64,000 bases of DNA from Thermoanaerobaculia bacterium. GTDB lineage: Bacteria; Acidobacteriota; Thermoanaerobaculia; Gp7-AA8. Under the pieces are notes generated by a model that saw nothing but the letters and a program-made list of their open reading frames with translations, was not told the origin of the DNA and did not search any database. Where the stretch lies: contig JBAZBK010000010.1 in assembly GCA_041671505.1 (NCBI GenBank), forward strand, positions 46,838 to 110,837. Direction: 5' to 3'. Each line of letters starts with the position of its first letter. Within the stretch, counting starts at the first letter, position 1. Below are positions 9,509-62,577 of the stretch, piece after piece. The translations under genes were made by a program, and so were the position numbers.

Positions 9509-9901
9509 CTACTGGCGCCGCGGGATCGGGAGCGGCCTGCGGTCGGTACCGACGTTCACATAGACGACCTGCGCCTCGGTGACGGTGGTCTCCGGCCCGT
9601 CCATGCTCGGGCGATGCGCCTTGACGACGACCTTCACTGTGATCGAGGTCGTCCCGATTCGCATCGTCTCCGCCCAGAAGCTGACGAGGTCGCCGACCTG
9701 AACCGGTTCATGGAAGACGACCTTGTCCATCGTGACGGTCACCATGAGGACGCAGCCCTGGCGACGTGCCTCGATCGCTCCCGCCTGATCGATGTAGGAA
9801 AGGATGACGCCGCCGAAGATCGTGCCGTGCGCGTTGGTGTCGCGCGGCATCATCAGCACGCGGATCGCCGGCTCGTTCCACGGCGGCAGGATCTCGCTCA
9901 T
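9509..9901 (-). CDS. Acyl-CoA thioesterase (hotdog fold, YciA-like)
   Basis: MSEILPPW...RVLMMPRDTNAHGTIFGGVILSYIDQAGAIEA is the YciA/4HBT signature. Start at the internal ATG 9901. Confidence 0.7.
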   Translation of the reverse strand: MSEILPPWNEPAIRVLMMPRDTNAHGTIFGGVILSYIDQAGAIEARRQGCVLMVTVTMDKVVFHEPVQVGDLVSFWAETMRIGTTSITVKVVVKAHRPSMDGPETTVTEAQVVYVNVGTDRRPLPIPRRQ

Positions 9902-9977
9902 CGCCTCTCCTCCTGAAACGGCGCGGGGCGCACGTCGCCGCGCGCCCCGCAACCCGACTCGCTGATTCTCAGCCCGT

Positions 9978-20341: not shown

Positions 20342-20373
20342 CGTCGCGCCAGACATCGCAGCCAGCGCGCGCA

Positions 20374-20643
20374 TGTAGCCAGGGCGTCCCGCCCTGGCCC
20401 CCTGATCCCACAAGCGTCGAATCACCACGCTACGGGGGCAAAGGCCGGAGGCCTTTGCTACAGGGCTGACGCGGTGCTCGATGCCGAAGCTCGAGTTTGC
20501 CTCATGTAGCCAGGGCGTCCCGCCCTGGCCCCCGTTCCCGGGCGAGGCTGGATCACCTCGCAACGGGGGCAAAGGCCGGAGGCCTTTGCTACAGGGACCG
20601 CATCATCCCGCCACGCGTGCAAAGGCCGGAGGCCTTTGCTACA
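20374..20643. repeat. REP/BIME-like cluster: five GTAGC-headed GC-rich hairpins in alternating orientation
   Basis: tgtagccagggcgtcccgccctggcc occurs at 20374-20399 and 20505-20530 (a 30-bp exact repeat). The reverse-orientation unit gcaaaggccggaggcctttgctaca occurs at 20438-20462, 20569-20593 and 20619-20643. Lies between convergent hsp15-like and pheS. Confidence 0.6.
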
Positions 20644-20654
20644 AGGCCGACCGC

Positions 20655-25309: not shown

Positions 25310-25386
<77 letters not shown>

Positions 25387-25407
25387 GTATTGTCAATCCA
25401 CGCTATT

Positions 25408-25484
25408 TGGTAGGCGCTATCGGACTCGAACCGATGACCTCTACCGTGTGAAGGTAGCGCTCTAACCAGCTGAGCTAAGCGCCT
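25408..25484 (-). tRNA. tRNA-Val (anticodon CAC)
   Basis: Near-identical scaffold to the adjacent tRNA. Acceptor stem AGGCGCT/AGCGCCT, anticodon loop TTCACAC, encoded CCA. Confidence 0.85.
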
Positions 25485-25582
25485 GCACTGCTGGAGCCCT
25501 CCGAAACTGAGCCTCCACCCTCGGTATTTCCGAGGGACGAGAAGCATAGGGAAGGCCGCGTGGGGAGTCAATAGGAGGATCG

Positions 25583-25696
25583 AAATGACAAATGAAGAAA
25601 TGACAAATGACAAGAGAGGAAGCGCGACCGCTGTCGGGACCCAGGGCCTGGTGGCGTTTTGTCATTTGTCATTTGTCATTTCTCATTTGTCATTCC
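25583..25696. repeat. Foldback hairpin with heptad-repeat arms (subtype A, AAATGAC/TGTCATT heptads)
   Basis: Left arm gaaatgacaaatgaagaaatgacaaatgacaa. Right arm ttgtcatttgtcatttgtcatttctcatttgtcatt (5 x TGTCATT). A ~45-nt loop contains ccagggcc. Lies between the tRNA-Val genes and lysS. Confidence 0.5.
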
Positions 25697-29752: not shown

Positions 29753-29793
29753 TTTTCTCCCGTTGTGCCGGAAGTATACGGCGAGATCCGGAC

Positions 29794-29931
29794 GGATTTC
29801 GGATTTCGGATTTGAAAGGCAGCCCGGGTACCTTACTGGTGTGGGCGGAGAAAGCTCATCCGAAACTCAGAGATCGCGAAGCTGGCGAAGCAAATCCGAA
29901 TTCCGAATTCCGAATTCCGAAATCCGAAATC
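29794..29931. repeat. Foldback hairpin with heptad-repeat arms (subtype B, GGATTTC/GAAATCC heptads)
   Basis: Left arm ggatttcggatttcggatttg. Right arm caaatccgaattccgaattccgaattccgaaatccgaaatc. Loop about 80 nt. Confidence 0.5.
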
Positions 29932-31514: not shown

Positions 31515-31632
31515 CCTGAAGAACCTGAAGTTAGAACGTAGAACGGTGAATTGAGAACCCAGAAAGGGGGACCGGGCGCCTCCTTCTTTCTGGGTTCTCA
31601 ATTCAACATTCTGCGTTCTAACTTCGGCCTTT
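31515..31632. repeat. Foldback hairpin, subtype E copy 1 (xxxxGAA heptads)
   Basis: cctgaagttagaacgtagaacggtgaattgagaacccagaaagg ... ccttctttctgggttctcaattcaacattctgcgttctaacttcgg. Copies also at 41018-41122 and 62415-62513. Confidence 0.55.
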
Positions 31633-38336: not shown

Positions 38337-38590
38337 GCGGGCGGGGCAGGAAATGTGGAATCCGGAATGCGGTCCGCGGAACGAAAACCGAAATGTAGAA
38401 TGTCGAATGTTGAATGGAGAATGTAGAAAGGGGATTCGAAGACTGGGACCGGAGATTGGGAACGCACGCCGATAGCCGTGGACGCTGACTATTTCAACCG
38501 CGCGAGCGCTTCTCCATTCGACATTCTTCATTCGACATTCTTCATTTCGGTTTTCGTTCGCACTCTGCATCCCGCATTCCGCACGCCGCC
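38337..38590. repeat. 254-bp foldback element with xxGAATG heptad arms (subtype C)
   Basis: Left arm ggcggggcaggaaatgtggaatccggaatgcggtccgcggaacgaaaaccgaaatgtagaatgtcgaatgttgaatggagaatgtagaaagggg. The right arm is its imperfect reverse complement (...cttctccattcgacattcttcattcgacattcttcatttcggttttcgttcgcactctgcatcccgcattccgcacgccgcc). It fills almost the whole 336-bp divergent intergenic region. Confidence 0.55.
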
Positions 38591-38634: not shown

Positions 38635-40971
38635 ATGTCACAGCACCTCATCAACTACCTGAGCCTCAAGCCCGAGCAGTCGCCGTTCCTGCTCGCCTCG
38701 GATTTGCCGCGACTCCTGCCGGCGATCTTCACCCGCCCGGAGTGGCTCCTCCCGCGCCCCTACAAGATCTTCTTCATCGACGAGGCGGCGCCCCCAGGCT
38801 TCGGCTTCCCCGTGCTCCACTCCGAAGTGCTGCGCGACCTCGACACGAAGCTCGACCGCTGGCTCGCCGACGAGGTGAAGTGGCAGCTCAAGATGGAAGA
38901 CGCGCGCGAGCGCGCGCGCCAGGCGTTCGGCCAGTACGTCTCGATGGTGGTCAAGATCGCCGAGAACGCGATGCTGTCGAACCTGCTCGCCGACTACCAT
39001 GCGGTCTTCTGGCTCTCCCACTCGCTCGACCTCTCGCGCCACTTCATCAACCTGCCGAAGAGGATCAGCCTCGTCGACACGCAGGCGGCGAAGACCCAGG
39101 CCGACGCGATCAAGTACCGGATCTACTCGAAGTGGGCCGCCGAGATGCGCGAGCAGATGACGCGGCTCGCCGCGCGGCTCGCGCCGACCCTTGACGGCGA
39201 GGAGGAGCGCGGGCTGAAGTTCTTCCGCGTGATCCAGGACAACGTCCTCATTCTCACCGAAGAGTTCATCAGCCCCGACCTCCGGGAGCTGCGTCCCTTC
39301 TTCAACGGATATCTCCATCGCGACTTCTTCGCCTTCCGCGAGATGTTCGAGCGGCTGCAGGGACAGGCGGCGGAGCTCGCAAAGAAGGACGTCACCTTCC
39401 GCGGCCTCGTCGGCCTCTTCGGCGTGAGCCCCGACCAGGGAATCCCCGTCGCGCTGATGCTCGACCAGAAGTTCCAGGACGTCCTCTTCGGACTTCCGGC
39501 AGTCGAGCTGCGGGTCTCGCGCGAGGAACGCGAGCAGCTCCGCTCGCTCTCCCGCCGCCTGCAGGAGTACTCCGTCCTCAACGCGCTGCGGCGCGGCATC
39601 ACCTGGATGGCACAGCTGCCTAACGGCGACACCGTCGCCCTCGACCGGCGCACCGGCGTCGTCTATTCGCGCGCCACCCGCCCCATCGACTTCGGCCGCC
39701 CGGGCGTCGTCGACCCGATGGTCTACCGCTTCGGCCTGATGTACGACATCAGCGCCTTCTCGCAGACCCTCGGTGACGTCGCCCGCACCGGACGCAAGGG
39801 CGAGTTCACCGCCTACCGGCAGATGCTCCTCTTCCAGAAGAAGCTCGCGACGATCACCGACCGCCACGTCCTTCAGTTCGAGAAGTTCCTCGGCGACGGC
39901 GCGTTCTACACGACGCGCCGCGCGCTTCGCCTCGTCCTGGCGTCGATCGAGATCCAGCGCTTCTACTCCGAGATGCGCCGCAAGGGCTTCGCCTTCAACA
40001 AGGGACTCAGGATCGCGCTCAACTACGGCTACTACCGCCTCCTGCCGCTCAAGGGGACGCCCGACTCGCCCGAGCACGTCATCGAGTTCTACGGCCCCGG
40101 CGTCGTCGAGCTCTCGCGCCTGACGACCGGCAAGGCGACGAAGGAAGTCGAGGAGATCCAGACCTTCCTCGTCGCGCACGGCTACGACACGAACGAAGTC
40201 TCGCGCTTCTTCGCGCCACTCGCGTCGGGCGCCGACATGGTCGACAAGGAAATGCACCAGCGCGAGTTCTTCGCCTACGTCAACCAGAACGGGCACCTCG
40301 TGAACGAAGGGCTCGTCTCGTCGATGAGCCTCGTGAGCGAGCTCTCGGGCGAGCTCGCCGCAGAGGGCCACCAGCTCTATCGCATCCAGGCTGCCTGGAG
40401 CAGCTACATCGGCTTCAGCGCCCCGATCGACGGCGTCGACTTCATCGGCGTGAAGCTGATCGGTCGCGTGCAGCTCAAGGGGCTCGGCAAGATCGAGGTG
40501 GCGGAGTTCGTCCCCTTCAATCGCGCCGACGTGACCGAGACGCGCACCGACGACGGCGAAACGCTCTTCAGCCTGCTCCGGCAGGAGTTCCACCAGTCGA
40601 CGCTGACGCGCCCCGACGACGAGTTGCTCGCCCGCTCGACCGGCGAGAGCCGGAAGCCGGTGCAGCAGATCCTCGTCTGTTTCTTCCGCGACCCCGCCAA
40701 CTCTGCTCCCGCGGTCTACCTCGGCGAGTGGGACCCGGCGATGGACTCGCTCCGCAACGCCGTGCGCCTCGCCGACGGCGACCTCGAGTCGCGCCTCGGG
40801 ATCGTGCTCCCCGTCACCGCCGAGGCGCTCGGACGGGAGCGCGAGAACGTCCTCAGCGTTTACCTCGACGAGGCGCGCGACTCCTATCTCCCGTCGATTC
40901 CGATGGACAGCGTCCGCACCCTCCCCGAGCTCCGCCTCTTCCTCGTGGGACTGTCCGTCGAAGCGCTGTAG
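38635..40971 (+). CDS. Large hypothetical protein with a divergent class III nucleotidyl cyclase (CHD)-like palm domain
   Basis: Central region ...VYRFGLMYDISAFSQTL...FLGDGAFYTTRRALRLVLASIEIQR...GLRIALNYGYYRLLPLK...EFYGPGVVELSRLTTG... parallels the cyclase motifs F-x-D-I-x-GFT / K-x-x-GD-x-x-M / R-I-G-I-H-x-G / GDTVN-x-A-SR, with both candidate metal Asp residues present. The flanking about 350-aa N- and 250-aa C-regions are unrecognised. Confidence 0.5.
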   Translation: MSQHLINYLSLKPEQSPFLLASDLPRLLPAIFTRPEWLLPRPYKIFFIDEAAPPGFGFPVLHSEVLRDLDTKLDRWLADEVKWQLKMEDARERARQAFGQYVSMVVKIAENAMLSNLLADYHAVFWLSHSLDLSRHFINLPKRISLVDTQAAKTQADAIKYRIYSKWAAEMREQMTRLAARLAPTLDGEEERGLKFFRVIQDNVLILTEEFISPDLRELRPFFNGYLHRDFFAFREMFERLQGQAAELAKKDVTFRGLVGLFGVSPDQGIPVALMLDQKFQDVLFGLPAVELRVSREEREQLRSLSRRLQEYSVLNALRRGITWMAQLPNGDTVALDRRTGVVYSRATRPIDFGRPGVVDPMVYRFGLMYDISAFSQTLGDVARTGRKGEFTAYRQMLLFQKKLATITDRHVLQFEKFLGDGAFYTTRRALRLVLASIEIQRFYSEMRRKGFAFNKGLRIALNYGYYRLLPLKGTPDSPEHVIEFYGPGVVELSRLTTGKATKEVEEIQTFLVAHGYDTNEVSRFFAPLASGADMVDKEMHQREFFAYVNQNGHLVNEGLVSSMSLVSELSGELAAEGHQLYRIQAAWSSYIGFSAPIDGVDFIGVKLIGRVQLKGLGKIEVAEFVPFNRADVTETRTDDGETLFSLLRQEFHQSTLTRPDDELLARSTGESRKPVQQILVCFFRDPANSAPAVYLGEWDPAMDSLRNAVRLADGDLESRLGIVLPVTAEALGRERENVLSVYLDEARDSYLPSIPMDSVRTLPELRLFLVGLSVEAL

Positions 40972-40980
40972 CAGCAGCGC

Positions 40981-41170
40981 CATCCCGATCCCGCGAAGCG
41001 GGAGAGGGATCTGCAGCTAATTCAAAGGCTGAAGTTAGAACGTAGAACGATGAATGTTGAACCCAGAAAGGCGGGTACCCGTTTCTGGGTTCAAAATTCA
41101 ACGTTCTACGTTCTAACTTCGGCCTCTTCTCCTCCCGCGTACACCTGTCGGCAATGCCGCCGCCTCTGCG
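40981..41170. mobile_element. Truncated MITE copy (M3) with a subtype-E foldback (41018-41122) inserted inside it
   Basis: catcccgatcccgcgaagcgggagagggatctgc matches the left end of M2 at 33/34 positions. After the inserted hairpin, M2-like sequence resumes (cacctgtcggca...). Confidence 0.5.
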
Positions 41171-50486: not shown

Positions 50487-50682
50487 GCGTCGGGCTCATT
50501 CCATGTCGCGCCGCTGAAGCGGCGCCGTTCATCGTTTGCGCCGACGTTTCCCCCGGTCTTCGACCGGGGGCTAAGTTCGGCCGTCGCTACGCGACGCAAG
50601 AACAAGAAGTAGTTGGCGCTGGCTTGTCTAACAACCAACGACCAACAACTAACAACTCACCACCACCCTCGAACAACCAACC

Positions 50683-51039
50683 CTACGCCTTCCGGTGCTC
50701 CGCCCTGACGATCGTCTTGATCCCGCCGCGGACGTAGAAGTCGCCTTCGACGAGCATCCAGCGCGGGTCGGTGGCGGCGACGAGGTCGTCGAGGATGCGG
50801 TTGGTCACCGCCTCGTGGAACGCTCCCTCGTCGCGGAACGACCAGAGGTAGAGCTTGAGCGACTTGAGCTCGACGCACTTCTGGTCGGGGGTGTAGCGGA
50901 TGCGGATCGTCGCGAAGTCGGGCTGGCCGGTCTTCGGGCAGAGGCAGGTGAACTCGGGGGACTCGAACGAGATCTCGTAGTCGCGCCCGGGGCGCGGGTT
51001 GGGAAACGTCTCGATGTCTTTGGAAGGGATCGTCGTCAT
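50683..51039 (-). CDS. queF: NADPH-dependent 7-cyano-7-deazaguanine reductase QueF (type I)
   Basis: ...[21 protein letters not shown]... has the catalytic Cys and the QueF motif. 118 aa. Confidence 0.85.
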
Positions 51040-56231: not shown

Positions 56232-57107
56232 ATGAAGTCAAAGTACGCAACGCTCATCTTCGTGCCGCATGCGCGGGCGAAGTTCAGAAAGATGGTGGTT
56301 TCTCACCGTCTGCTGTGGGGCGCTGTCGGACTCGCGGGCCTCTCCCTCATCCTCTCGAGCTTCTTCGCCATCCAGTACTTCACCTCGATCTCCCACGCAC
56401 GCGAGCTCTCGCGGCTCAAGGCGGAGAATCGCGATCTCCAGGTCGCGAACGAGGACTTCAGCAAGTCGGTCGACACGCTTCGCTCGCAGCTGAAGTCAGT
56501 CGAGGAGAAGACGCGCAAACTCGCGATCATCGCGGGCGTGAACGCGATCGACGAAGGCGCGACGGGTGGTGTTGGCGGCCTTCGCGACGGCGCGGCGCCC
56601 GGCAGTCCTTACAGCGATGAAGTCGACACGATGCGCTTCCGTTCGCGCCGCCTCGCGAGCGAGCTCTCGCTCCTCGAGGACAAGCTGACCGAGCGCTCGC
56701 AGATGCTCTCCTCCACGCCTTCGATCGCACCGGTCCACGGCGTCCTGACCGACGGCTTCGGCGGACGGTCCGATCCGTTCACCGGCGAGAAGGGGATTCA
56801 CACCGCGGTCGACATCTCCTCCGCGCCCGGACAGCCGGTCCGCGCTCCCGCCGACGGCATCGTCGTCAAGGCGGAGTGGGCGAACGGCTACGGCAACGTC
56901 GTCTACATCTCGCACGGCTTCGGCTACTCGACCCGCTACGGCCACCTTCAGAGCTTCGCGGTCAAGCCGGGCCAGAAGGTCAAGCGCGGCGACCTGATCG
57001 GCGCCGTCGGAACGACCGGCCGCTCCACCGGCCCCCACCTCCACTACGAGGTCCGCCTCAACGACCAGCCGGTCAATCCGCTCGCTTACATCCTGAACGC
57101 TTATTAA
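56232..57107 (+). CDS. M23-family metallopeptidase (EnvC/NlpD-like, coiled-coil + LytM domain)
   Basis: N-terminal TM plus coiled coil. LytM domain H-x-x-x-D (GIHTAVD), ...SHGFGYSTRYGHL..., HLHYEV. Confidence 0.8.
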   Translation: MKSKYATLIFVPHARAKFRKMVVSHRLLWGAVGLAGLSLILSSFFAIQYFTSISHARELSRLKAENRDLQVANEDFSKSVDTLRSQLKSVEEKTRKLAIIAGVNAIDEGATGGVGGLRDGAAPGSPYSDEVDTMRFRSRRLASELSLLEDKLTERSQMLSSTPSIAPVHGVLTDGFGGRSDPFTGEKGIHTAVDISSAPGQPVRAPADGIVVKAEWANGYGNVVYISHGFGYSTRYGHLQSFAVKPGQKVKRGDLIGAVGTTGRSTGPHLHYEVRLNDQPVNPLAYILNAY

Positions 57108-57212
57108 GACTTTTCGAGGCCCCGCGATGCTGAGTTGCGGGGCCTTGGTGTATTCGGGCGATTTCGTGCGGCGGATGGAACTCGTTCCGCGAGATCTTCG
57201 CTGGATCGACGT

Positions 57213-57581
57213 CAGCGTTCGTCCGCGAAAACCGAAATGTCGAATGTCGAATGAGGAATGAAGAATGGAGAAACAAGGCCCGTCGCATTGACCCTTTCTT
57301 CATTCTTCATTCGACATTCGACATTCGACATTTCGAATTCTCGACCCCCTGCACCGACCTCGCCGATCGCCGAACGCACGCACGGCCCGCCTGAACAAAA
57401 CTCAGCGTTCGTCCGCGAAAACCGAAATGTCGAATGTCGAATGAGGAATGAAGAATGGAGAAACGAGGCCCGCCGCATTGCCCCTTTCTTCATTCTTCAT
57501 TCGACATTCGACATTCGACATTTCGAATTCTCGACCCCCTGCACCGACCTCGCCGATCGCCGAACGCACGCACGGCCCGCC
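57213..57581. repeat. Tandem 190-bp duplication, each unit containing a subtype C/D foldback hairpin (xxGAATG heptads)
   Basis: Unit 1 is 57213-57402 and unit 2 is 57403-~57581, near-identical. Each unit has cgaaaaccgaaatgtcgaatgtcgaatgaggaatgaagaatggagaaa ... tttcttcattcttcattcgacattcgacattcgacatttcgaattctcg. Hairpins at 57226-57343 and 57416-57533. Lies between convergent genes. Confidence 0.6.
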
Positions 57582-57645
57582 ATCAAAGAACAAAGGCCCC
57601 TTTCCGCTCACGCAGAAAGGGGCCGGGATTCAAGACTGACTTCGG

Positions 57646-59454
57646 TCAGAACAGCCGGTTCCCTACCATCCCGGCGGAATCTGCCTCGTTCGCCAATAGC
57701 CATCCCACGACTTCGCCGGGGATGAAGTCGTCGGGCATGTAGCTCGGGCGGTCGAAGGCGGAGGAGCCGCCGGTGGCGATGTCGGCCTTCGACTGCAGCA
57801 GCCTGGTGATCCGCTCCGACCAAGAGACGAAGTTCGCCGGCCGAAGGTCGACCCAGCCCTGGAAGGCGTACTTCTCGATCGCCGCGCCGTCGACCTCGTT
57901 AGGCAGGCCGTCGGGCCGCGGGACCGGGATGTTGAGCCGCGGGCCGCGCGTGATCTTCGCCCCCTTGCCGTCGGCGCGCAGCAGAGGGATGCCGATCGTC
58001 GTGACGAGGCTCGTGACCTTCGGGTTCGCGGCGAGAAACGTCTCGACCGCTGCCCGAAGCCTCTCGGCCGGAACCTTGGCCAGCTCTGCCGCCGACGAGG
58101 TTCCCGTCGCGGCACGGATCAGGTACGCCTCAAAGAGCAGCTTCGAGAGGCGCGGCGGCCCGAGCTGGCCGATCGCGACCGACGGCAGGAAGTCCTTCTC
58201 CGCCGACAGGGCGTTCTCGAGCACCGCGAGCTGGCGGCACGCATGGTCGCGCAGCACGCCGGCCCGGTAGCTCGGCTCGGTGATCGCGCCGTCGATCGCG
58301 GCGAGCACGTCGCGTCCGGTCGACGCGCCGAGGATCTCGAGGATCACCGTGCGGGCGACTTCCTCCGGCGTCACGTACTCCATCTGCCGCGGATAGGTGA
58401 TCGCGTGGAACTCGCCGATGCAGAAGAAGCCGTTCTCGCCCGTGTCGGCGCCGACGATCGTCACCGGCACGTCGCGGTTCTCGAACTTCGAATAGCTCGC
58501 GAAGTCGGCGCGCGGCTGGAGCGCCGCCCCGATCGCCTCGTCCTTCGACTCGACGAGGAAGCCCGGCTCGCGCGCGTTCGTCGCGCCGGCGAGCTTCACG
58601 TGGCTCGAGCGGAGCTTGCGGAAGCCGATCATCGCCCCCGGCTTCACTTCCTTGATCAGCGTCCCCATGTTCTCGCTCCCCTCGGTCGCGACTCCGGGAG
58701 TGCGGGCGAGAAGGAAAAGGAGTCCGGTGTGCGCGAAGCCGATCGCCGACTTCGAGATCAGCGTCGCGCTCGGCTTGTCCTCGCTGTGCGTGTAGGGGAT
58801 GTTGAGCCCCATGCCGCCGGTTCCCGTCGTCCCGACCTTCACGTAGATCCGGACGCCGGTGTCCTTGAGCGTGTTGTGCAGGTAGAGGATGTGGCGCGTG
58901 ATCTGCGGCACTCCCTGCGCGATCATCAGCTCGCGCACGCCGAGGATGAACTTGTCGAGGTCGGCCTTGTCGAGCGAGCCGGCATCCTCGAGACGGTCGA
59001 GCATCACCTTCACGCGGCGCGAGGTCGTGTAGACGTCCTGGTAGCTGATCGCCGTCGCGGTGTTGATGCAGTCGACGACGACGTCGGGCCGGTGGCTGTC
59101 GATCAGCTTGAAGAGCTTCGACGCCTTGTAGGCCTCGGGGTTCGACGAGAAGATGTCGTCGAAGAGCTCGTCGAAGAGCTTCCGCTCCGCGACGAGACGC
59201 CCGCGACCGTGGCCCTGGAGTGAAGCGGGGATGAAGATGTCGCCCGGCTCCGGGGTGAACTTCGTCTTCCAGCCGAGCCGCGCCGCGTCGGCGCGAAGCT
59301 CCGCGACCGCCTCGTCGACTTCCGCCGAGGTAAGAGCAGAAATGATGATCTCGTCAGGCTGGAGCTCGCGTACGGCCTCGCGCGCGACCTCCACGCCGAC
59401 CATGCCGCCACCGCCGAGAATAAGAACCCGTTGCGCCGCCCTATGACGCGTCAT
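57646..59454 (-). CDS. Hypothetical NAD(P)-binding Rossmann-fold protein (saccharopine-dehydrogenase-like N-terminus?)
   Basis: N-terminus VLILGGGGMVGVEVAREAV (GxGxxG). The 602-aa remainder is unrecognised. Confidence 0.4.
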   Translation of the reverse strand: MTRHRAAQRVLILGGGGMVGVEVAREAVRELQPDEIIISALTSAEVDEAVAELRADAARLGWKTKFTPEPGDIFIPASLQGHGRGRLVAERKLFDELFDDIFSSNPEAYKASKLFKLIDSHRPDVVVDCINTATAISYQDVYTTSRRVKVMLDRLEDAGSLDKADLDKFILGVRELMIAQGVPQITRHILYLHNTLKDTGVRIYVKVGTTGTGGMGLNIPYTHSEDKPSATLISKSAIGFAHTGLLFLLARTPGVATEGSENMGTLIKEVKPGAMIGFRKLRSSHVKLAGATNAREPGFLVESKDEAIGAALQPRADFASYSKFENRDVPVTIVGADTGENGFFCIGEFHAITYPRQMEYVTPEEVARTVILEILGASTGRDVLAAIDGAITEPSYRAGVLRDHACRQLAVLENALSAEKDFLPSVAIGQLGPPRLSKLLFEAYLIRAATGTSSAAELAKVPAERLRAAVETFLAANPKVTSLVTTIGIPLLRADGKGAKITRGPRLNIPVPRPDGLPNEVDGAAIEKYAFQGWVDLRPANFVSWSERITRLLQSKADIATGGSSAFDRPSYMPDDFIPGEVVGWLLANEADSAGMVGNRLF

Positions 59455-62308: not shown

Positions 62309-62414
62309 GGTGGGGTCACACCGAAAGATGAAAGTTTGCGGCGGGACCCCACTTCTTCATCTTCTTTTCGGTCTGACTCCAATGGCTTTCTGCTTCGAGT
62401 TAACGGAAGAGAAG

Positions 62415-62513
62415 CCGAAGTTAGAAGTTAGAACGTTGAATGTTGAATCCAGAAAGGCCTGAGCGGCTTCTTTTCTGGGTTCAAAACTCAACGTTCTAAC
62501 TTCTAACTTCAGG
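62415..62513. repeat. Foldback hairpin, subtype E copy 3
   Basis: ccgaagttagaagttagaacgttgaatgttgaatccagaaagg cctgagcggcttc ttttctgggttcaaaactcaacgttctaacttctaacttcagg. Confidence 0.55.
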
Positions 62514-62577
62514 TTTTCCTGCGTGAACTCACCGCCGTTGAGTCTGACCCAGCGGCGGAGGCGGGACGCCTCCGCCA

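Follow-up and report, generated by a model that had tools for sequence, protein, structure and literature searches.

A convergent gene pair in the 64,000-nucleotide stretch from Thermoanaerobaculia bacterium, a soil acidobacterium, analyzed in this study (referred to as the window) encloses a tandemly duplicated segment at 57212-57581, each copy of which carries a foldback (inverted repeat) made of AT-rich heptads of the form xxGAATG. The gene on the left (56232-57107, plus strand) encodes an M23 peptidase (Pfam, E = 1e-37), homologs of which are labeled Thermoanaerobaculia or Acidobacteriota, while that on the right (57646-59454, minus strand) is an open reading frame (ORF) of 602 amino acids with a G+C content at third codon positions (GC3) of 0.91 and a match to PF27054 in a precomputed table. 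A preliminary description of this DNA had placed the array between convergent genes, and this arrangement was confirmed. Loci retrieved from other contigs for comparison are denoted below by L numbers.

Tandem Repeats Finder reported 57212-57581 as 1.9 copies with a period of 190, 98% matches, 0 indels, and a score of 719, and this was the sole long-period array reported in the window. A repeat search returned two 180-nt copies with 98% identity and a spacing of 190 nt (positions in the table). The 190-nt tandem duplication in the preliminary description was therefore reproduced, with the repeated part being 180 nt followed by a 10-nt spacer. In each copy, arms of 41 nt with 93% complementarity enclosed a 21-nt loop, and the inverted-repeat search found two pairing registers for this hairpin, 7 nt apart and nearly equal in quality. 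Period-7 arrays were called by Tandem Repeats Finder in the two arms of copy 1 (57236-57272 and 57296-57332) and at the twin positions of copy 2, and period-7 runs were also seen by autocorrelation. The four-heptad GAATG pattern GAATGNNGAATGNNGAATGNNGAATG (with up to 2 mismatches) matched the window 20 times, against 0.00 expected, and all 20 matches were confined to 57235-57530 and 38391-38547; the xxGAATG foldback noticed previously in each unit was thus clearly present.

Arms were 57-69% A+T (about 62% for the 41-nt arms of the array), in a genome of roughly 65% G+C. When folded as single-stranded DNA, the hairpins gave -40 to -43.5 kcal/mol (z of about -10 to -11 against shuffles), and RNA folding gave z = -8.7 and -5.8, one for each strand. 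Copies 1 and 2 differed at exactly three positions (A/G, T/C, and A/C), the same three that had been listed before, and every one of them fell within the 21-nt loop. Under uniform mutation, the chance of this is (21/180)^3 = 0.0016 by our own calculation, which suggests that the loop positions may be hypermutable. With three substitutions and one indel in the spacer, the duplication is fairly recent, as had been supposed.

Two Logan contigs assembled from short reads (SRR18595301) hold the flanking genes at 100% identity. One (L001) stops at window position 57241 and the other (L122) at 57552 (converted from the locus coordinate), each end falling precisely 30 nt within a boundary of the 180-nt repeat (57212 on the left and 57581 on the right). 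Since the Logan assembly graph uses k=31, ends at these positions mean that the graph saw two left and two right neighbors, namely X-spacer-X. The expansion of a single copy by the assembler was considered because both contigs end inside the repeat, where short-read assemblies break, because arrays of this kind are error-prone, and because the window may share its sample with the short reads. On the other hand, these same ends need two left and two right contexts in the reads, and a naive expansion would yield neither the three differences between copies nor the distinct junction spacer. The contig breaks, the copy-specific substitutions, and the spacer together make an assembler-made duplication unlikely, and more than two copies would also be compatible with them; an artefact from one expanded copy appears to us very improbable.

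In a blastn comparison of the unit with the window, only the arms, including the stem base CGAAAACCGAAATG, recurred elsewhere. Within the unit, the hairpin is flanked by 21 nt on its left side and 66 nt on its right (~87 nt per unit), for which the only counterpart was in the twin copy, with right-flank matches being limited to 57336-57411 and 57526-57581. Since the flanks of the unit were unique to its twin, the array arose by a local segmental duplication and not by two insertions or transpositions. By eye, the junction spacer (tGAACAAAac) was similar, with an indel, to the sequence 3' of copy 2 (atcaaaGAACAAAgg), suggesting that the original duplicated block may have extended slightly further and that the indel came later. 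No convincing microhomology was found at the duplication boundaries.

The preliminary description had also taken the array as a sign of active expansion of the foldback. In that form, this was not supported: the unit includes the ~87 nt outside the dispersed element, unique in the window, and there are two copies only. Furthermore, the fetched loci (2.77 Mb) contained 102 strict foldbacks, and long-period tandem repeats overlapped none of them except the window array. Higher-order tandem duplications of heptad-containing units were found elsewhere, with 3.3 copies of 85-92 nt in L067 and 1.9 copies of 153 nt in L309. Each 85-92 nt unit of the former (675-966, from a Lentisphaeria metagenome-assembled genome) combines (GAATGCT)4 with (TAATTCA)n, two arrays that are partly complementary. 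The activity that the foldback family does display is of another kind, namely, dispersal to new loci and quick turnover between close relatives, as described below.

The array was lineage-specific. In L124 (76% identity), the synteny of the M23 (+) and PF27054 (-) genes was kept, and the spacer, 72 nt long, contained one terminator and lacked inverted repeats. In the syntenic L125 (74% identity), a gene of 117 amino acids sits in the spacer; this inserted gene (1584-1937) belongs to the 23S_rRNA_IVP family (PF05635). In L123 (92%), a CGCCGT hexamer repeat, at which the contig ends, was found just past the conserved terminator (2700-2824) in place of the array, and this one spacer seems to attract different types of repeat in different strains. 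The contig of the closest relative (P0002) stops 14 nt after the gene and is thus uninformative about the array.

On the left, the spacer is bordered by a terminator-like hairpin of the M23 peptidase gene, and on the right by an intrinsic terminator of the 602-residue ORF. The former was kept in the 92%-identity relative L123, with divergence downstream from about 57160, and was missed by the terminator scan because its loop exceeds 8 nt; the latter was the only terminator called by the scan around the array. With such a hairpin at either gene end, the array sits in a stretch between two terminators and, as judged from the sequence, is predicted to lie outside both transcription units in an untranscribed spacer. 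A promoter scan of 56900-57800 found no promoter-like site, and an independent small-RNA gene was therefore unsupported. At the gathering threshold, only two tRNAs in the whole window passed in Rfam; at E <= 10 on 57050-57700, the best matches were plant miRNA precursors, with 37 bits against thresholds of 73-196.

Several other identities were considered and rejected. The ORFs overlapping the array (e.g., 57258-57725 on the plus strand and 57212-57493 on the minus strand) failed the GC3 filter that recovers real genes, and a repeat peptide was dismissed since a 7-nt period is unable to encode one in a single frame. The heptad hairpins did not qualify as intrinsic terminators, having 41-bp AT-rich stems followed by GC-rich sequence without a U-tract, nor did two 180-nt units 10 nt apart, without spacer structure, qualify as a CRISPR array. 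A blastn search of annotated plasmids and phages with the unit gave 0 matches.

Eight AT-rich heptad hairpins were present at seven loci in the window (~1 per 8 kb), all outside GC3-supported ORFs: four in divergent, two in co-directional, and one in convergent spacers. The preliminary description had assigned the array to the same subfamily as an element at 38337-38590. This stood for the arms, which were 89-91% identical over 44-48 nt including the stem base, and not for the loops and flanks, which were unrelated. Three other foldbacks (31527, 41026, and 62397) formed a family (referred to as family B) with the heptads GAAGTTA GAACGTA GAACGnT GAATGTT GAACCCA GAAAGG. Its copies were 74-90% identical over about 100 nt, and an alignment of five copies contained compensatory double changes in 4 of the 42 stem pairs, with unrelated loops.

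Among the remaining repeats, the AAATGAC-heptad foldback neighbors two adjacent tRNA-Val genes (anticodons gac and cac; 25310-25484, minus strand). At 50628-50682, a single-armed AACAACC-like array of ~7 units without an inverted partner abuts the stop-codon end of a QueF-like gene on the minus strand (50683-51039). A cluster of GC-rich, GTAG-tagged palindromes resembling repetitive extragenic palindromic (REP) elements was located at 20370-20650, with GTAGCCAGGGCGTCCCGCCCTGGC occurring twice and GGGGGCAAAGGCCGGAGGCCTTTGCTAC, the reverse complement of which begins with GTAG, three times; similar palindromes were found in L367 (405-590, 8700-8893, and 10204-10387). Canonical REPs thus occur alongside the AT-rich heptad foldbacks.

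Features of the duplicated array, its borders, and the other heptad foldbacks in the window (a dot marks features without a strand).
Feature	Positions	Strand	Basis
Terminator-like GC-rich hairpin 3' of the M23 peptidase stop codon, GGCCCCGC...GCGGGGCC with a T-rich tail; left edge of the spacer	57113..57149	+	read from sequence
Copy 1, 180-nt segment	57212..57391	.	repeat searches and blastn
Copy 1, 5' arm, xxGAATG heptads: CGAAATG TCGAATG TCGAATG AGGAATG AAGAATG GAGAAA	57233..57273	.	
Copy 1, loop, caaggcccgtcgcattgaccc, including the decayed heptad cgCATTG	57274..57294	.	
Copy 1, 3' arm: TTTCTT CATTCTT CATTCGA CATTCGA CATTCGA CATTTCG	57295..57335	.	
Copy 1, GC-rich non-element part, in the window only with its copy-2 twin	57336..57391	.	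blastn
Junction spacer, 10 nt, tgaacaaaac, absent after copy 2	57392..57401	.	
Copy 2, 180-nt segment; arms 57423-57463 and 57485-57525, loop 57464-57484	57402..57581	.	
Intrinsic terminator of the 602-residue ORF; 13-bp stem with 9 GC pairs and TTTGTTCTTT tail; borders the spacer on the right	57595..57624	-	terminator scan
Second member of the GAATG subfamily; 50-nt arms, 88% complementary, 81-nt loop; between divergent genes	38379..38559	.	
Family B foldback of a related heptad superfamily: GAAGTTA GAACGTA GAACGGT GAATTGA GAACCCA GAAAGG	31527..31625	.	
Family B foldback; 44-nt arms, 93% complementary	41026..41125	.	
Family B foldback; 59-nt arms, 85% complementary	62397..62530	.	
AAATGAC-heptad foldback, ~100 nt upstream of two minus-strand tRNA-Val genes; divergent spacer toward a plus-strand gene	25582..25694	.	
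CGGATTT / AAATCCG heptad foldback; divergent spacer	29793..29931	.	

Dispersal and turnover were followed around a gene of 778 amino acids (38635-40971), relatives of which were found in L367 (93% identity) and L369 (87%). In the spacer upstream of this gene, the window has the GAATG element at 38337, and L367 has a family-B foldback close to that at 31527 in the window; L369 has an orthologous GAATG/GAACG foldback, in which the start of the loop (GGGATTCGGAG) was kept, the heptads differed, and an extra decayed arm was present. In this ortholog (9756-9925), a single left arm could pair with either of two right arms, at 9814-9848 (decayed) or 9884-9925 (better), suggesting an older partial duplication within the element, as far as can be read from the arms. 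In the downstream spacer, the family-B foldback at 41026 in the window corresponds to GC-rich palindromes in L367 and to a single CGGATTT array in L369. The element at 31527 has a partly decayed ortholog in L369. The elements at 38337 and 41026 lie outside the boxes that are conserved between these relatives (gctatact; cttgaca...actaat) and were read as promoter-like. More distant relatives (about 75% identity) contained no long inverted repeats in 20 kb.

Copies were also found in other organisms. A metagenome scan with the stem base GAAAACCGAAATGNNGAATG yielded, among the 120 matches listed, about 20 genuine foldbacks, located in soil contigs rich in G+C; most of the listed matches were dismissed as chance or coding matches. 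L148, from another metagenome and another organism, carries an element near-identical to the unit in unrelated flanks, and shares its asymmetric right end, CATTTCGAAxTCT in place of the perfect complement CATTTCGGTTTTC. Derived features that are shared in this way, across loci and organisms, argue for copying, not convergence. The orthologous foldbacks of L205 and L237 (soil contigs) are one heptad and a few uncompensated substitutions apart, about the divergence of the adjacent genes. In L190 (505-615), the arms stand in reverse order (a CATTC arm, an 11-nt gap, and a GAAAACCGAAATG...GAATG arm) without any outer partners, as though nothing but the junction between two neighboring elements had been retained, although this was judged from the order of the arms. 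A GAATGTT/CAATGTT foldback in L161 (about 410-520) starts immediately after a stop codon (TAA). It is located between genes read as rplK and rplA from the neighboring coding sequences and, hence, presumably within a normally co-transcribed operon.

Beyond these families, the four-heptad GAATG pattern was found at no fewer than 120 loci (at least) in contigs from one genome per species, spread over many phyla (Verrucomicrobiota, Acidobacteriota, Chloroflexota, Planctomycetota, Bacteroidota, Cyanobacteria, Gemmatimonadota, Nitrospirota, and Lentisphaerota among the matches listed), and at a minimum of 120 loci in viral contigs. Between roughly a quarter and a third of the listed matches were foldbacks, always with GAATG in the 5' arm, and the rest were single arrays. 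In 954 kb of fetched DNA, 266 tandem arrays had a period of 7, and any other period between 4 and 12 was represented by 10 arrays or fewer. The fetched loci together contained 108 distinct heptads, with 912 heptad arrays, of which about three quarters were single-armed, and 102 foldbacks. Some GC-rich viral contigs (L262, 6319-9572, IMGVR_UViG_3300028840_003139; L287; L310) hold several types of heptad array side by side, such as (GAATGCT)n beside (CCCTGAC)n and (GAATGAC)n of up to 14 units, in a layout that recalls clusters of the cyanobacterial short tandemly repeated repetitive (STRR) sequences.

On balance, we lean toward the interpretation that the array combines a dispersed AT-rich heptad palindromic element, selfish or neutral and similar to REP elements and their hairpin-forming doublets (REPINs) or to MITEs (miniature transposable elements with inverted repeats), with one duplication by slippage or unequal exchange, in non-transcribed spacer DNA. 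The hairpin would be one copy of a non-coding palindrome with arms of tandem heptads (consensus GAAyGnn, here xxGAATG) and defined ends (CGAAAACCGAAATG ... CATTTCGAAxTCT), other copies of which are found at unrelated loci and in other organisms, with the stems staying complementary and the loops changing freely; its dispersal would be due to a mobilizing activity. It would settle in spacers where insertion is harmless, be it between the terminators of convergent genes, between promoters that diverge, or on the upstream side of a promoter, and slipped-strand events may then alter the number and variants of the heptads within its arrays. One such element and ~87 nt of neighboring spacer were duplicated once, so that two units now stand 190 nt apart; unequal exchange, template switching, or slippage during replication is the likely route. 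The copies then gained a small indel at the junction and three substitutions in the loop, which is the portion that should be single-stranded when the hairpin is extruded. The anatomy, the duplication, its restriction to one lineage, the dispersal, the turnover, and the stem compensation were thus shown, and the mobilizing activity, the route of duplication, and the lack of function are inferred. The array itself probably has no locus-specific function.

Some observations weigh against this interpretation. The 24 window proteins compared with Pfam (23 of which had a family match) included no transposase or other mobilizing gene, and none was found in the annotated relatives. The flanks of the unit, of the 38337 element, of L148, and of the three family-B copies had no direct repeat in common, and no target-site duplication could be delimited because a clean empty site to set the insertion boundaries was not available. 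In L045, the GAATG core was kept in both arms even with the two variable positions unpaired, which hints at a constraint on sequence beyond hairpin formation, and the confinement of all of the copy differences to the loop could mean selection or gene conversion acting on the rest of the unit. Some copies stay at orthologous sites with a divergence similar to that of the flanking genes (L205/L237; L369 against 31527 in the window), and this persistence would also fit a weak function. Moreover, some elements of relatives lie in likely transcripts or 3-30 nt from start codons. Together with the core retention in L045 and the loop-confined differences, these copies keep functional readings alive.

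One such reading is that the element acts at the RNA level, being transcribed by read-through or in untranslated regions and serving as a 3'-end stabilizer, RNase III substrate, translation modulator, or small RNA, the signal of which would be doubled by the duplication. RNA-level roles have been proposed for REP, enterobacterial repetitive intergenic consensus (ERIC), and bacterial interspersed mosaic (BIME) elements. Consistent with this, the RNA folds are very stable on both strands, the stems of family B show compensatory changes, and copies occur in probable transcripts: in the rplK/rplA gap (L161), right after stop codons (L169 and L231), and upstream of start codons at a distance of 3-30 nt (L205, L237, L191, and L149). 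Single GAATG arrays in co-directional contexts were in the sense orientation in 46 cases versus 28, a count of little weight because the underlying ORF calls are crude (they place 110 of 281 arrays inside "ORFs"). Per-strand G-U counts were over-dispersed among the 102 foldbacks (chi2 181, df 83); however, this was rejected as evidence of an RNA role since heptad variants specific to one arm multiply by amplification inside that arm (L293 and L090), so that the dispersion is not independent evidence. On the other hand, the array lies between the terminators of both genes with no promoter-like site, relatives have the same genes without it, and elements occur in either orientation relative to neighboring genes. 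Rfam offered only sub-threshold plant miRNA hairpins, and the 41-bp duplex, AT-rich and lacking a U-tract, is not an intrinsic terminator. An RNA-level role is accordingly unlikely in our estimation.

Alternatively, GAATG at every 7 bp in two inverted blocks may be a platform for an oligomerizing protein, or the AT-rich hairpin may be a cruciform that absorbs supercoils between transcription units. There are precedents for proteins on such arrays, and contiguous heptads are present in the sequence: the ribbon-helix-helix omega repressor of inc18 plasmids, a dedicated protein encoded near its sites, binds contiguous 7-bp heptads, direct or inverted, in a cooperative manner; HutP binds UAG repeats with a 7-nt period; and each CspB cold-shock protein binds one heptamer (PMC4679880). 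The retention of the core in both arms of L045 in spite of the mismatch at variable positions, the same core in many phyla and viral contigs, the A+T-rich arms in a G+C-rich genome, and the location of elements between divergent promoters and convergent terminators, which are sites of supercoil build-up, all point in this direction. Nevertheless, one genome holds many unrelated heptads (AAATGAC, CGGATTT, GAAGTTA, and AACAACC; 108 over all loci), a poor fit to one sequence-specific protein. Orthologous spacers of close relatives differ in whether an element is present, a 7-bp spacing is out of phase with the DNA helix, and no candidate protein was identified, with no search having been aimed at one; we regard this explanation as improbable. 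A further possibility involves no transposition: heptads grow in place by polymerase slippage, arm-to-arm template switching matches the arms, and look-alikes are convergent mutational by-products. A slippage hypothesis for heptameric repeats is given in PMC4692102, which cites Mrazek 2007. The dominance of heptads among tandem arrays, the differences in heptad number and variants between orthologous copies, the prevalence of single-armed arrays (about three quarters), and the almost equal pairing registers shifted by 7 nt are all compatible with it. However, the non-heptad ends and their asymmetry are common to copies at unrelated loci in different organisms, the family-B copies are 74-90% identical over about 100 nt, and a family-B copy stands at a new locus in the 93% relative (L367). 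The shared ends, this identity, and the new-locus copy indicate copying rather than convergence, leaving in-place slippage as a quite unlikely origin.

It is conceivable, although distinctly unlikely, that the GAATG-core arrays and foldbacks form a coherent cross-phylum class, not slippage debris, that is read or made by a conserved factor, such as a protein that reads GAATG at 7-nt intervals in nucleic acid, whether single-stranded or folded into a hairpin, or an enzyme by which arrays are synthesized or mobilized. If this were true, the foldback families of Thermoanaerobaculia, including the duplicated unit, would be substrates of the factor, and the 35-year-old puzzle of heptameric repeats in bacteria would become experimentally tractable.

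Returning to the dispersed-element interpretation, the element shares several features with REP and REPIN elements (PMC3116915, PMC2817692, PMC3733652): both are intergenic, non-coding hairpins of ~100 nt in dispersed families, with compensated stems, a patchy distribution among strains, and tandem or clustered cases. REP/REPIN elements are mobilized by REP-associated tyrosine transposases (RAYTs) (PMC3116915, PMC2817692, PMC3733652). They differ from the array element in that REPINs consist of two GC-rich REPs of 20-40 nt, whereas its arms are heptad arrays and its ends (CGAAAACCGAAATG / CATTTCGAATTCTCG) have no GTAG or CGTC tag; furthermore, no RAYT was found among the 23 window proteins with Pfam matches or in the gene tables of relatives. 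The element also resembles MITEs and families with long terminal inverted repeats (TIRs), being a small, non-autonomous, AT-rich inverted-repeat element in intergenic DNA. Acidobacteria are reported to have a distinct group of TIR-associated Y1 transposases (TIRYT) and moderately abundant TIR families (PMC3733652). These enzymes are a candidate class of mobilizer for the heptad elements in Acidobacteria. In contrast to MITEs, the loops were not conserved between copies of the window families, and no parent insertion sequence or transposase was seen. ERIC elements (also called intergenic repeat units) and BIMEs are, like the array elements, intergenic imperfect palindromes of ~100-130 nt that vary between species, and their function is debated (RNA stability, and the binding of gyrase or IHF). 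To our knowledge, ERIC has no sequence relation to the array element and no heptad substructure, and ERIC copies lie in transcribed regions, whereas the array lies between terminators.

Heptameric repeats are over-represented in bacteria for reasons that are unexplained (PMC4692102, PMC4679880), and the GAATG heptad arrays fit this known class. Named examples are the cyanobacterial STRR sequences, the "long simple sequence repeats" (LSSRs) of Mrazek 2007, TAACTGA of Beggiatoaceae (PMC4679880), and GGGAATC/GGGGATT of Xanthomonas and Nostoc (PMC4692102). As in STRR and LSSR sequences (PMC4679880, PMC4692102), tandem 7-nt units are intergenic, with many heptads per genome and fast variation among close relatives; the arrays had three or more contiguous 7-nt units with a dominant consensus, and the heptads varied at orthologous spacers (L367 and L369). 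Xanthomonas arrays are at times inverted repeats able to form stem-loops (PMC4692102). Unlike the known heptanucleotide repeats, the window arrays are paired as inverted arms in hairpins of 40-60 bp with conserved non-heptad ends, belong to dispersed families, and are AT-rich in a GC-rich acidobacterial genome. A search of full-text literature found no description of GAATG heptad foldbacks, of the GAATG core, or of its spread across phyla and viruses; the xxGAATG repeat class is widespread and poorly described.

As a single local event in dispensable spacer DNA, the duplication is of little weight, apart from the caution it offers to assemblers because short-read contigs break there. Of more general significance, in a GC-rich acidobacterial lineage, hairpin families move and turn over between relatives that have diverged by 7-13% in protein sequence. 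Their defined ends, matched arms, and presence or absence among close relatives provide an entry point for asking whether heptad arrays are mobilized, templated, or slipping, and whether they are bound. In terms of known systems, the element is at once a heptanucleotide repeat and an intergenic palindromic repeat family, both of known kinds, and its duplication is ordinary.

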